In this document: positions 31,984 through 34,586 of the stretch, piece by piece
Numbering within the stretch: position 1 is the first letter of the stretch
Layout of the letters: the number at the start of each line of letters is the position of its first letter
Assembly: GCA_001772985.1 (NCBI GenBank)
Contig: MEVN01000034.1
Location: forward strand, 1-34,741
Direction of reading: 5' to 3'
From: a candidate division WWE3 bacterium RIFCSPLOWO2_12_FULL_36_10
GTDB taxonomy: Bacteria; Patescibacteriota; WWE3; UBA101185; UBA10185
DNA: 34,741 bases
Notes under the pieces: model-generated
What the model saw: only the letters and a program-made list of their open reading frames with translations
What the model was told of the DNA's origin: nothing
Database searches by the model: none
Made by a program: the position numbers and the translations under genes

Positions 31984-32199
31984 AACAAGGTAGCCGTAGG
32001 GGAATCTGCGGCTGGATCACCTCCTTTCTGGAGAAAAAACGTATTTTGATCTTCGGATCCTTTTCTGATTTAGTCAGCAAAGACCGAATGAAAAAACAAA
32101 TACAACTCATGGGCTATTAAGCTTGTAACCCATGTGAAAGTCTGTACTCTCACGTATAGACAAAGCGAGTTCGAAGTAAGCTACAAACTTCAAATCGAG

Positions 32200-32227
32200 C
32201 ATTCTTTTCGCTTTTTGTTTCTTGAAA
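32200..32227 (+). other. 3' strand of the 16S precursor processing stem
   Basis: CATTCTTTTCGCTTT TTGTT TCTTGAAA pairs with 29788-29815. The SD of the Nudix gene begins 3 nt after it. Confidence 0.7.
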
Positions 32228-32241
32228 CTTAGGAAGTAGAG

Positions 32242-32685
32242 ATGAAAAAATCCAATAAGAAAAATAAAATAAATAATGTATGTTTAGCCGTTGTTAAAAA
32301 CAAAGACAACGAAGTTTTAATCATAAAAAGAATAATAGAAGAAGACGCTTCTGGTGGCAGAAAGCTTACTTGGGTATTTCCGGGTGGAATTGCAGACGAT
32401 CATGAAGAAAAATCAGAAGTTGCAGAACTTGAGGCTCTTGAGGAAACCGGATACAAAGTTAAGGCAATTAGAAAAATCTCAGAAAGAGATTATTCTATGC
32501 CGAATGTCCATTTGGCATATTTTGAATGTGAGCTAGTCTCGGAAGATAGAACAGAACTTTTGGATGTAGAGGAAGTAGAACAAGTTCGTTGGGTTCCGAT
32601 TGAATATTTAATGGATTTTTTTACAACTGATGTTGATCCTGTTGTTGCCAAATTTCTTGGCCTAAAAAATTATTTGCCTAAATAG
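32242..32685 (+). CDS. Nudix hydrolase
   Basis: Nudix box GGIADDHEEKSEVAELEALEETGY (Gx5Ex7-[R to L]-EALEETGY). SD AGGAAG upstream. Confidence 0.8.
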   Translation: MKKSNKKNKINNVCLAVVKNKDNEVLIIKRIIEEDASGGRKLTWVFPGGIADDHEEKSEVAELEALEETGYKVKAIRKISERDYSMPNVHLAYFECELVSEDRTELLDVEEVEQVRWVPIEYLMDFFTTDVDPVVAKFLGLKNYLPK

Positions 32686-32704
32686 CTTATGTACTTAGAT
32701 AAAT

Positions 32705-32733
32705 TTGACAGAAATACAGAAATTCTGTATTAT
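32705..32733 (+). promoter_or_regulatory. Promoter (TTGACA-17-TATTAT) with an embedded palindromic operator; predicts a leaderless antitoxin mRNA
   Basis: TTGACA at 32705-32710 and TATTAT at 32728-32733. ATG 32740 is 6 nt after the -10. The palindrome ATACAGAA-A-TTCTGTAT (32714-32730) fills most of the spacer and runs into the first 3 nt of the -10. Confidence 0.55.
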
Positions 32734-32739
32734 TGAATA

Positions 32740-32985
32740 ATGTTACAATCACCCCAAGATGAAATCATCAAGTTACAGCCTAGAGGTTTGTTGACTATAC
32801 CAAAAAAGTTTCGCAAAAGTTTGGGGCTTGAAGAAAATAGTTTGCTAAGAATACGAAAAGATCGGTGGAGATTAGTTATTGAACCGGTTCGAACTATTTC
32901 CTATTCAGTCAGAAGTTATACAGATAAAGATTTAAGCGATTTTTTTGAATTTGATGAAGAACAAACGAAAAGTCTCAAAAAATAG
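32740..32985 (+). CDS. AbrB/MazE/SpoVT-family antitoxin
   Basis: N-terminal swapped-hairpin motif KLQPRGLLTIPKKFRKSLGLEENSLLRIRKD. Confidence 0.75.
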   Translation: MLQSPQDEIIKLQPRGLLTIPKKFRKSLGLEENSLLRIRKDRWRLVIEPVRTISYSVRSYTDKDLSDFFEFDEEQTKSLKK

Positions 32986-32997
32986 GTTTTGATTATA

Positions 32998-33225
32998 ATG
33001 AAATTAGTTTATTGATTGAAAACATATTTGATTCATTTGAAACAGCTCCTAATGCAGAAACAGTAAAGAAATACCAGAAAATAGTAATTGATTTTGGAGA
33101 CGCGCATGTACTTGCTTCTTGTCACGAAGCTAAGGCAGATTTTTTAGTAACTTTGGATAAGAAACATTTATTAATCCTTCAAAATAAAATTAAATGGGTA
33201 AGGATTGTTTCTCCTGCAGAACTTT
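32998..33225 (+). pseudogene. Decayed PIN-domain (VapC/PIN_3-like) toxin gene: frameshifted start, shortened body, 3' end running into a tRNA gene
   Basis: ATG 32998 opens MKLVY and then a stop. A 1-nt shift continues LIENIFDSF...DAHVLASCHEAKADFLVTLDKKHLL...VRIVSPAELL, which is the PIN C-terminal signature. The body is only ~75 aa where ~130 aa are expected. The listed ORF stays open only by reading through the antisense tRNA. Confidence 0.5.
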
Positions 33226-33302
33226 TGGTGGGTGCTCATGGACTCGAACCATGGACCTCTTCCTTATCAGAGAAGCGCTCTAACCAGCTGAGCTAAGCAC
33301 CC
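33226..33302 (-). tRNA. tRNA-Ile (anticodon GAT), CCA encoded
   Basis: The reverse complement folds as GGGTGCT-TA-GCTC-AGCTGGTTA-GAGC-G-CTTCT-CTGATAA-GGAAG-AGGTC-CATGG-TTCGAGT-CCATG-AGCACCC-A-CCA. Confidence 0.93.
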
Positions 33303-33313
33303 AGTTTCTGTAA

Positions 33314-33342
33314 AGTATACTACCATATTTACTTTTACTTAA
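33314..33342 (-). promoter_or_regulatory. Candidate promoter for the minus-strand tRNA-Ile (TTAAGT-17-TATACT)
   Basis: On the minus strand, TTAAGT at 33342-33337, a 17-nt spacer, and TATACT at 33319-33314, 11 nt upstream of the tRNA 5' end. Confidence 0.45.
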
Positions 33343-33379
33343 TAGTACTGTAGTCTCATAGCAACAAAAGGAGGATCGG

Positions 33380-34213
33380 ATGGGAAGGACAATGGATCAC
33401 AAAACAATGGACGTTTTAGTTGGTTCATCCGAGATAGATCTTTTTCAGGCGGGCGGGAAAGGAATGACAAAAGCGGATATTTGTTCCGCGGCGCAGAAGC
33501 GTTTGATCAACGGTCCTAAACTTACCGGTGGTGAGAAGGCGAGATTCTTTAACCTTGTGCTTTCCAAAGCAGGGGCTGTGAAGGTTGCGGGACGTTTTTA
33601 TCATGGGAATTTTATTCCGACAAAACTTACGCCTATCAAGGAAGTTTCTTTGGTAAGAAAAGGTCCGGCTACGGAGGCAGAACGTTTGGCTGCCACGGCC
33701 GTTCAAAAAGAACTTATTTTGCGGACAACCGCCGGGCTATCAATGTCTAGAGCCGAGATGATTGAGATAGCTTGCAAGAGCATGGGTATTAGTCCCGATA
33801 AGTTCCCGCTTGTTCGTTGGTGGACTTTAGCGGCTTTAATCAGTTGCAAAAATAACGGGGATAATACTTATAGGTACTTTTCACTGTCTGAGCGTACTGT
33901 TAATGCCAGAAAAGCTTTGGCAGAACAAAGGCAATTAAGTGAAAGAATGAGAAAGGCCACCGAAAAAGCTGCAAAAAGGGCTAATAAGGAACCGGCTTTG
34001 GCTCATCCCCAAGCTTTCTCTGGTTTGGGAGTTTCTCCTCCGGATTATGTTTTTGAGGCTGAGAAAGGTAAGGAGATGGAGGTCACGGTTGTCGGGGCGA
34101 AGGGTGGCGCTAGTATTACAACCAGAGCCCATAAGGTTATCATTTTCCTTGTTGTTCCAATGTTGGTTGTAGCATGTTTTTTTGGCGCAGTTCTGCCCTA
34201 TCTGCCACATTAG
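33380..34213 (+). CDS. Hypothetical protein (277 aa) with a C-terminal TM anchor
   Basis: Strong SD AAAGGAGG 6 nt upstream. GC-richer than its surroundings. C-terminal hydrophobic helix IIFLVVPMLVVACFFGAVL. Followed by a strong terminator. Confidence 0.55.
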   Translation: MGRTMDHKTMDVLVGSSEIDLFQAGGKGMTKADICSAAQKRLINGPKLTGGEKARFFNLVLSKAGAVKVAGRFYHGNFIPTKLTPIKEVSLVRKGPATEAERLAATAVQKELILRTTAGLSMSRAEMIEIACKSMGISPDKFPLVRWWTLAALISCKNNGDNTYRYFSLSERTVNARKALAEQRQLSERMRKATEKAAKRANKEPALAHPQAFSGLGVSPPDYVFEAEKGKEMEVTVVGAKGGASITTRAHKVIIFLVVPMLVVACFFGAVLPYLPH

Positions 34214-34237
34214 CCGTTTGTTTTCACAAGTTTGCAA

Positions 34238-34272
34238 ACCGACAGTTCATCCCACGACCTGTCGGTTTTTTT
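34238..34272 (+). terminator. Rho-independent terminator
   Basis: ACCGACAG (34238-34245) pairs with CTGTCGGT (34259-34266), followed by TTTTTT. Confidence 0.8.
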
Positions 34273-34273
34273 G

Positions 34274-34302
34274 TTGACACAACATTTAGTTAGTGATATG
34301 TT
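34274..34302 (+). promoter_or_regulatory. Candidate promoter for tRNA-Ala/23S (TTGACA-17-TATGTT)
   Basis: TTGACA at 34274-34279, a 17-nt spacer, TATGTT at 34297-34302. It lies immediately after the terminator. Confidence 0.5.
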
Positions 34303-34420
34303 ACCCATACGGAATGGGAATAACCTTCATAGAAGCTTAGGCTTCCGAACTCGAAGCTCTGGTTTCCAAATTATTTTAATAATATATAATGTGGCCCAAA
34401 TGGGTAAAGGTGCTCAAAGG

Positions 34421-34496
34421 GGGCCCTTAGCTCAGTTGGTAGAGCGCGGCGTTTGCATCGCTGAGGTCAGGAGTTCGAACCTCCTAGGGTCCACCA
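34421..34496 (+). tRNA. tRNA-Ala (anticodon TGC), CCA encoded
   Basis: Folds as GGGCCCT-TA-GCTC-AGTTGGTA-GAGC-G-CGGCG-TTTGCAT-CGCTG-AGGTC-AGGAG-TTCGAAC-CTCCT-AGGGTCC-A-CCA. The G3:U70 identity pair is present. Confidence 0.95.
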
Positions 34497-34586
34497 GAAT
34501 ATTATTAATAAAGCACTTTGAAAACTGAACAAGATCGTGCAAAATGTTTGATAGCATTTTGGCATTGATCTAAAAGTCAAATGTAT

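Follow-up and report, generated by a model that had tools for sequence, protein, structure and literature searches.

When a 16S and a 23S ribosomal RNA (rRNA) gene stand close together on one strand with tRNA and protein genes between them, are the two still transcribed as one operon, and was such an arrangement inherited or acquired recently? These questions are raised by a locus near the end of a 34,741-nt metagenomic contig (MEVN01000034.1, positions 1 to 34,741; hereafter the window), in which the interval separating the 16S gene from the 23S gene covers 2559 nt (32028-34586). A sequence-only reading of the window had delimited the same interval, at about 2.5 kb, and had interpreted it as a spacer colonised by protein genes in which a terminator and a fresh promoter uncouple the two rRNA genes; each of the elements that it listed was found where it had been placed or close by. 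Our analysis makes it likely that this is an inherited split rRNA locus, probably working as four or five transcription units. The split, an inverted tRNA-Ile gene, and a Nudix hydrolase gene behind the 16S gene appear to be old, clade-wide features on comparison with related genomes, and the only lineage-specific cargo appears to be a remnant of a toxin-antitoxin cassette (AbrB/PIN) and an orphan gene for a 277-aa protein.

The window is the whole of contig C34 of a metagenome bin of 730 kb in 47 contigs, estimated to be 82% complete. The nearest relatives of the MnmA protein encoded in the window carry the names Saccharimonadales or Saccharibacteria, and on the strength of these names we place the host among environmental Saccharibacteria (TM7, Saccharimonadales-like). 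For comparison, 16S-end-to-23S-start intervals were taken from 20 related genomes and ARAGORN was run on each, and a class-wide BLAST survey scored the orientation of tRNA-Ile with respect to a 23S start located on the same contig. Families are numbered, f1 being that of the window and f2 its sister family.

A predicted terminator and promoter directly precede tRNA-Ala and the 23S gene

One indication of separate transcription lies just ahead of the 23S gene, where a hairpin (34236-34268, inverted repeat I3) on the plus strand is followed by seven T residues, the element as a whole spanning 34236-34272. The hairpin has a 10-bp stem (AAACCGACAG/CTGTCGGTTT) with six G-C pairs and a 13-nt loop, and the segment around it (34214-34285) folds at -18.8 kcal/mol (z -2.6). 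A simple terminator scanner missed it because the loop is too long. By its hairpin and T7 tract the element is an intrinsic (Rho-independent) terminator with predicted activity, in agreement with the strong terminator that had been claimed at 34238-34272. One base past it lies a promoter core with a -35/-10 spacing of 17 and an upstream TG (34274-34302), which together with a conserved start motif, CCATACGGAATGGGA, forms the putative tRNA-Ala/23S promoter TTGACA-N14-TGA-TATGTT (34274-34320, plus strand, 10/12 match). The claim of a TTGACA-17-TATGTT promoter ahead of tRNA-Ala and 23S is thus borne out, and the same design recurs in most relatives: at least 13 of 18 have TTGACA-N14-TGnTAnnnT...ACGGA at a distance of 130-270 nt ahead of tRNA-Ala.

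The conservation of this block was assessed with two contigs from the European Nucleotide Archive (ENA), L040 and L041. The hairpin, the T7 tract, the -35 element, and the extended -10 element are invariant in the window, L040, and L041, while the adjacent coding sequence is 65-89% identical, and the 350 nt from the stop codon of the 277-aa gene to the 23S gene are 94% identical. This pattern indicates that the terminator/promoter/leader block is under strong constraint and far more conserved than the neighbouring coding sequence. A scan for the exact pattern of the terminator-promoter block gave no match in genome contigs and matched one metagenome contig (L042).

Downstream of the block, tRNA-Ala(TGC) lies on the plus strand at 34421-34496 and is the sole tRNA-Ala found in the bin. 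A second, weaker promoter-like site, TTTCCA-16-TATAAT (34363-34390, plus strand), has a -10 element that is not conserved in two divergent contigs. Between tRNA-Ala and the 23S gene there is a boxA-like element, ACTTTGAAAACT (34515-34526, plus strand), recognised with a pattern defined post hoc, and elements of the (T/C)TCTTTGAAAA(C/T)TG type occur in the tRNA-Ala/23S spacers of 9 of 14 relatives. The 23S gene itself, identified with Rfam, is cut by the contig end after 155 nt (34587-34741, plus strand), and the remainder was not found in the bin; a conserved ACGGAATGGGA motif is a candidate start of a 23S leader-trailer stem. The 23S-side leader of the window also holds a 21-nt insertion, TAGAAGCTTAGGCTTCCGAAC (34330-34350), relative to L040, L041, and L042, which is a partial repeat of the neighbouring TCGAAGCT.

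The 16S gene is enclosed by its own predicted processing stem

The 16S rRNA gene (29817-32027, plus strand) begins at 29817 according to the Rfam model for bacterial 16S rRNA, and its true 3' end, GGATCACCTCCTTTCT, is at 32027; the end was shifted to this position because an insertion of about 750 nt (31222-31975, plus strand) sits near the 3' end of the gene. Upstream, the putative 16S promoter TTGACA-N14-TGT-TATCTT (29693-29721, plus strand, 10/12 match, TG present) has, in a by-eye comparison with 34274-34320, the same design as the 23S-side promoter, down to a CCAT-CG-A motif after the -10 element. The leader carries a boxA-like element, ACATTGAAAATT (29739-29750, plus strand), that fits the pattern ACWTTGAAAAYT; this pattern, which was defined post hoc, has just two matches in the window, and GCACTTTGAAA was found in the 16S leaders of four relatives. 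The boxA-like elements of the locus resemble boxA of the Firmicutes type.

The 16S gene is flanked by two complementary strands, one of which (29774-29816) abuts its 5' end and the other of which (32198-32239) lies in the trailer, both on the plus strand. They form a duplex of about 42 bp with a folding energy of -42.1 kcal/mol, compared with -28.7 +/- 3.8 for shuffled sequences, of which 1 in 300 was equally good. The same leader-trailer test with a trailer ending at 32150 was not significant, and it was the longer trailer that yielded the stem, which encloses the 16S gene alone. Analogous stems, with AAGAATGT immediately before the 16S gene and ACATTCTT after it, are present with compensatory differences in 8 of 10 relatives. 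As a long, covarying duplex around the mature rRNA, the structure is an RNase III-type processing stem, at which cleavage is predicted. In two relatives that have no Nudix gene (G017 and G006), intrinsic terminators follow the 16S stem.

Two side observations concern the 16S gene. Its insertion contains an open reading frame (ORF) for a LAGLIDADG endonuclease (LAGLIDADG_3, 31357-31953) and a weak match to a group I intron (31854-31976, E 2.4e-4). A 2024 survey described Saccharibacteria as exceptional among the candidate phyla radiation (CPR) in having rRNA genes without such insertions (PMC11270868), and a LAGLIDADG-bearing 16S insertion would be a counter-example to that statement. At another locus, L038 (G005:C18:5500-8500, reverse strand), two copies of the 16S 3'-terminal motif GGATCACCTCCTT lie 2.4 kb from each other and flank a Nudix gene and two further ORFs, an arrangement that may reflect duplication of the 16S 3' end.

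The Nudix gene is a conserved neighbour of the 16S gene

The 3' strand of the processing stem covers the ribosome-binding site of the first protein gene of the interval and ends 3 nt before its ATG. This gene (32242-32685, plus strand) encodes a 147-aa protein that matches Pfam PF00293 above the curated cut-off (E 2.6e-13), in agreement with the Nudix hydrolase proposed from sequence alone; in NCBIfam the protein gave weak MutT-like matches and reached no equivalog. Compared with the Nudix box consensus GX5EX7REUXEEXGU, the window protein reads, by eye, G-IADDH-E-EKSEVAE-LEALEETGY (32385-32450), with Leu replacing the conserved Arg. The orthologues retain the Arg and vary one Glu, and the catalytic motif is fully canonical in no member.

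Orthologues (E <= 1e-34) were found in 25 of 86 family genomes and are clearly set apart from paralogues (E >= 4e-14). Without exception they are situated between the 16S gene and the inverted tRNA-Ile, inside the rRNA interval and in the orientation of the rRNA genes. In the window and in three Nudix-bearing relatives the ATG is 3-30 nt past the stem strand; since this leaves no space for a promoter, the gene is probably the tail of the pre-16S transcript, co-transcribed with it and with its ribosome-binding site inside the stem. It is also conceivable, as a tentative extension to which we give somewhat less than even weight, that the 16S unit carries the Nudix gene as a conserved passenger transcribed from the rRNA promoter, and that the ribosome-binding site of this gene stays locked in the stem until RNase III frees the pre-16S RNA.

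tRNA-Ile is inverted in most loci of the family

Farther into the interval, tRNA-Ile(GAT) lies on the minus strand (33226-33302), inverted relative to the rRNA genes, as the sequence-only reading had noted. That reading had also called the usual tRNA-Ile/tRNA-Ala spacer absent, which overstates the case, both tRNAs being present in a rearranged form. Each is the only copy found in the bin, tRNA-Ile(GAT) being the sole GAT isoacceptor, so that both must be expressed. Upstream of tRNA-Ile on its own strand is a promoter-like element, TGGTAGTATACT, with overlapping -10 candidates (33314-33342, minus strand), which is a consensus match only; most relatives have extended -10 elements of the TGnTAnnAT type at 20-45 nt upstream of their inverted tRNA-Ile.

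ARAGORN placed tRNA-Ile(GAT) on the complementary strand in all 15 f1 and f2 loci, and tRNA-Ala(TGC) on the rRNA strand in all 13 of these that reach the 23S side, whereas four loci from other families of the class have tRNA-Ile in the canonical orientation. The BLAST survey gave the same picture on a wider basis, with 40 inverted and 4 canonical cases in f1, two inverted cases in f2, and one each in f9 and f15, and no canonical case in these last three families. Conversely, f4, f7, and f18 yielded four, three, and one canonical cases, respectively, and none inverted. ARAGORN also gave the canonical orientation for an f6 locus (G031), and on further loci it agreed with the survey. Among the four exceptions in f1, one (G100) is real, one is in a contaminated bin, and two are weak, distant BLAST matches. 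When the G100 locus (L075, G100:C1:85000-96000) is aligned with that of G016 (L022), which belongs to the same genus, a cassette of about 260 nt alone is inverted and the flanking genes are colinear. The flipped cassette consists of tRNA-Ile and its upstream region, which fits a self-sufficient tRNA unit whose orientation would be nearly neutral.

Unusual tRNA genes were encountered elsewhere in the comparison. Two loci from other families of the class, L077 (G124:C31:9000-14400) and L078 (G104:C1), have extra tRNAs in the interval, one carrying tRNA-Cys beside an inverted tRNA-Ile and the other tRNA-Val with an odd tRNA-like gene for which a 4-base anticodon was called. Outside the window, on contig C42 of G000 (19418-19493), ARAGORN reported a tRNA-Ile with the anticodon TAT (UAU), which is unusual for bacteria; these normally read AUA via a lysidine-modified CAU tRNA.

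The split is shared by relatives and the cargo varies

Of the 18 loci that extend to both rRNA genes, 17 have an interval of 3.5-16 kb occupied by protein ORFs that vary from locus to locus. The remaining one, G032, is compact, its interval being about 1.2 kb long and free of any convincing ORF. The cargo varies among relatives, some of which carry protein genes on the opposite strand in the interval. The comparison with related genomes, which had been proposed as a check on the sequence-only reading, thus shows that the split layout recurs across the family, and that the AbrB/PIN genes and the 277-aa gene are not generally shared. The description of the interval as colonised accordingly applies to these lineage-specific genes and not to the split, the inverted tRNA-Ile, and the Nudix gene. 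The earlier statement that no transposase or flanking repeats accompany the inserted genes agrees with our searches for signs of mobile elements, in which Pfam and NCBIfam revealed no transposase or integrase domain and the only repeats were short ones at chance level and the similarity between tRNA-Ile and tRNA-Ala.

An intact gene for an AbrB/MazE-type antitoxin of 81 aa (32740-32985, plus strand; PF04014, E 3e-6, above cut-off) follows the Nudix gene. Its putative promoter, TTGACA-17-TATTAT (32705-32733, plus strand), is the best promoter match of the region at 11/12, and on both counts the claim of an AbrB antitoxin gene with its own promoter stands. The ATG comes 6 nt after the end of the -10 element and lacks a ribosome-binding site in front of it, and the mRNA is probably leaderless. 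The promoter spacer contains a palindrome, CAGAA-A-TTCTG (32717-32727), which suggests autoregulation. Weak homologues of the antitoxin were found in 5 of 85 family genomes, never at the rRNA locus.

The stop codon of the antitoxin gene is 26 nt from a PIN toxin remnant (33012-33225, plus strand), which matches positions 76-115 of the 115-position PIN_3 profile (E 9.8e-5, below cut-off). This is only the last third of the profile, as expected of the decayed PIN gene that had been described. The N-terminus is short of about 65 residues, where the first catalytic acidic residues would be expected, and the open frame is extended solely via the antisense of tRNA-Ile. The pair resembles type II VapBC-like modules in the order of antitoxin and toxin, in the combination of an AbrB/MazE fold with a PIN domain, and in the palindrome in the promoter spacer. 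It differs in that the toxin is truncated, so that the module cannot act as a pair. A functional VapBC-type pair was accordingly rejected, given that such a pair needs an intact PIN toxin with four conserved acidic residues and that the PIN protein here lacks its N-terminal two thirds, leaving an orphan antitoxin or regulator. From these features we regard AbrB/PIN as a decaying toxin-antitoxin cassette specific to this lineage.

The last protein gene of the interval (33380-34213, plus strand) encodes 277 aa, and its ATG is preceded, at a distance of 5 nt, by AAGGAGG (33368-33374), a strong ribosome-binding site. Its G+C content is 46%, compared with 33-36% in its neighbours and about 35% in the bin, and the protein has a hydrophobic C-terminal tail, VIIFLVVPMLVVACFFGAVL; the GC-richer, membrane-anchored ORF with a strong Shine-Dalgarno sequence that had been claimed is hence confirmed in its sequence features, the tail fitting a tail-anchored membrane protein. 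Neither Pfam nor NCBIfam gave a match. Three homologues were found in 5.8 billion clustered proteins, making four sequences known in all, and an exhaustive phmmer search of 1.84 billion representatives returned one true homologue and no real remote relative; two further phmmer matches were rejected as translated tandem repeats. An AlphaFold model had a mean predicted local distance difference test score (pLDDT) of 45.6, too poor for use. The ORF is a real gene under purifying selection, with a ratio of nonsynonymous to synonymous divergence (dN/dS) of 0.16-0.30 and its place before tRNA-Ala and 23S kept at a dS of about 1.9 relative to L041, where synonymous sites are saturated. Because the divergent orthologue has the same G+C content and the same position, recent horizontal transfer was rejected as the main explanation of the high G+C content. 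About 55 nt upstream of the gene are conserved, even in L041, which is without an adjacent tRNA-Ile.

Contigs from other assemblies carry the same order

Three contigs allow the join between the 16S and 23S sides to be compared with other assemblies. L040 contains tRNA-Ile on the complementary strand, the 277-aa ORF (89% DNA identity), tRNA-Ala, and the beginning of 23S. In L041 the ORF, whose protein is about 60% identical, is accompanied by tRNA-Ala and 295 nt of 23S. The third, L042, from the JGI, contains the 16S-insertion ORF, Nudix, AbrB, the PIN stump, tRNA-Ile on the complementary strand, the 277-aa ORF, and tRNA-Ala. Aligned with window positions 31560-34530, L042:1-2966 has one mismatch up to 33944 and is then of the L040 type inside the 277-aa gene, a pattern pointing to either a natural recombinant or a strain-chimeric assembly.

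A model of separate transcription units and its alternatives

Taken together, the 16S stem, the terminators, the inverted tRNA-Ile, the invariant block, and the shared promoter design lend comparative support to the proposal that the 16S and 23S genes are probably transcribed separately. The 16S unit would start at the promoter at 29693-29721 and comprise the boxA-like leader, the 16S gene with its insertion, and the trailer, from which the rRNA would be excised at the RNase III-type stem, with the Nudix gene downstream. A self-contained unit would follow in which a leaderless, probably autoregulated AbrB gene precedes the dead PIN stump. tRNA-Ile would be transcribed on the opposite strand by an extended -10 promoter of its own; the gene for the tail-anchored 277-aa protein would form a unit ending at the strong intrinsic terminator; and the second promoter, of the 16S-promoter design, would drive tRNA-Ala, the boxA-like element, and 23S. 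From the sequence and its conservation we infer that the promoters and terminators are active, that RNase III cleaves the stem, that Nudix is co-transcribed with 16S, and that transcripts do not read through from 16S to 23S. The two look-alike promoters could keep both rRNAs balanced.

Several points weigh against this model. A terminator scan found no plus-strand terminator between 32028 and 34236, so that 16S and AbrB transcripts may run antisense through tRNA-Ile into the 277-aa gene, for which, moreover, no convincing promoter match was found. The promoters and terminators are consensus matches backed only by conservation, the terminator hairpin is only moderately exceptional by its loop length and z-score, and the boxA-like pattern is post hoc. 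As independent support L042 is weak, as it may come from the same population as the window. The missing terminator is also what one would expect if the locus were still one operon, with a boxA/Nus-modified polymerase reading from the 16S promoter through to 23S and the internal promoter being supplementary. Such an operon would agree with the orientation of all large interval genes on the rRNA strand and with the boxA-like element in the 16S leader, and Lui et al. conservatively class same-strand arrangements with protein genes as 'operonic' (PMC8172020). The polymerase would, however, have to pass the canonical, invariant hairpin and T7 tract immediately before the second promoter. In rrn operons antitermination is directed mainly against Rho-dependent termination, and the operons themselves end at intrinsic terminators. 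The polymerase would also transcribe an essential tRNA head-on, and this position of tRNA-Ile counts toward separate 16S and 23S units. Given further that the 16S gene has its own complete excision stem, followed in relatives by an intrinsic terminator, and that the intervals of relatives reach 16 kb and include opposite-strand protein genes, we consider a single operon unlikely, if not negligibly so.

The remaining alternatives concern how the interval arose. If a formerly compact 16S-tRNA-Ile-tRNA-Ala-23S operon had recently been broken by mobile or horizontally acquired genes, one might expect cargo that differs between relatives, a sporadic and decaying AbrB/PIN pair whose weak homologues lie elsewhere in the genome, and a GC-richer orphan gene known from four sequences, all of which are seen. 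Yet the split is common to the family and beyond, as are the inverted tRNA-Ile, the separate promoter, and the Nudix gene; the orphan gene has kept its position despite saturated synonymous sites, and transposase, integrase, and flanking repeats are lacking. Compact canonical operons are confined to other families of the class, f7 and f18, and no close relative of the same genus with a compact operon was present in the collections searched; we therefore give recent disruption little credence. A chimeric join of two organisms or strains in the spacer, for instance at tRNA-Ile or the GC-richer ORF, was the further explanation considered, in view of the fragmented bin, the contig end within 23S, the 46% G+C of the 277-aa ORF against about 35% in the bin, and the mosaic of two strain types in L042, which indicates that strain mixing occurs in such data. 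The matching order in L040 and L041, the span of L042 from 16S to tRNA-Ala, and the matching architecture, inverted tRNA-Ile included, in about 40 related genomes, some of them single-contig, argue otherwise, and the G+C content is equally high in the divergent orthologue and is thus a property of the gene itself. From the three other contigs and the family-wide architecture, a chimeric join is very unlikely, and the least probable of the alternatives. An inherited split locus with separate 16S and 23S units remains the reading that we favour.

Relation to known split rRNA loci and implications

Split rRNA loci have been described before. Brewer et al. treat rRNA genes as unlinked when the spacer is above 1500 bp and found Patescibacteria to be a coherent unlinked cluster (10.1101/705046, later ISME J 2020), and Lui et al. 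(2021) reported clade-specific unlinking in CPR genomes, with protein genes in the spacer included (PMC8172020). At 2559 bp the present interval exceeds the distance used by Brewer et al. and, with tRNA-Ile on the minus strand and the protein genes all on the rRNA strand, falls into the unlinked-by-distance class (type D) of Lui et al. The likeness extends to the presence of an opposite-strand gene between the rRNA genes and to clade-specific conservation in a small-genome lineage. The difference is that the genes here are close neighbours on one strand, whereas in those studies they lie tens to hundreds of kb apart. Moreover, the two Saccharimonadia genomes of Lui et al. were scored as operonic, whereas the family studied here is split and other families of the class are compact. 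Promoters, terminators, and processing stems were not analysed in either study (10.1101/705046, PMC8172020).

The closest counterpart is found in oral Saccharibacteria, of the same phylum. According to Murugkar et al. 2020 (PMC7651992), one to five protein genes 'in various orientations' usually lie between 16S and 23S together with tRNA-Ala, tRNA-Ile, and tRNA-Val, and a gene for a conserved 79-aa protein follows 16S; a 2025 preprint remarks that the TM7x spacer holds pyrD and a hypothetical gene (PMC12424978). Both groups share tRNA-Ala(TGC), tRNA-Ile(GAT), and protein genes between the rRNA genes as well as a conserved small gene after 16S, but the cargo differs, the oral taxa having the 79-aa protein, pyrD, and tRNA-Val and the present locus Nudix, the AbrB/PIN remnant, and the 277-aa orphan. 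The text examined of PMC7651992 is silent on promoters and on a systematically inverted tRNA-Ile. Split rRNA genes are also listed for Buchnera, Wolbachia, Rickettsia, Mycoplasma, and Borrelia (PMC8172020). Such reduced-genome symbionts are similar in their small genome, single rRNA copy, separation of 16S from 23S-5S, and independent expression; in them, however, a large distance usually separates the genes and the spacer tRNAs have been lost or relocated, while here both tRNAs are kept between the genes. The layout is therefore an inherited and already described kind, split rRNA loci with protein genes having been published for CPR and for oral Saccharibacteria. What is added here is that tRNA-Ile is inverted family-wide and that a Nudix gene accompanies 16S as a conserved passenger, along with the paired promoters and the terminator-promoter block.

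For the organisms concerned, the consequences are modest in practical terms, and no new question is opened. Long-amplicon 16S-ITS-23S methods, which span the internal transcribed spacer (ITS), and ITS typing will miss or mis-size them. If the two rRNA genes are expressed separately, rRNA stoichiometry must be balanced by two look-alike promoters and not by co-transcription. The locus can be pictured as a series of conserved anchors, namely the 16S stem, Nudix, inverted tRNA-Ile, promoter, tRNA-Ala, and 23S, with fast-changing cargo slots between them, a picture that could guide transcript mapping in cultivable Saccharibacteria. If the ribosome-binding site of the Nudix gene is indeed locked in the stem, synthesis of a MutT- or RppH-like Nudix protein would be tied directly to rRNA synthesis and processing, and, taken with a tRNA-Ile cassette that is autonomous and can flip, the locus would then serve as a defined model for the dismantling of an rRNA operon into modules.

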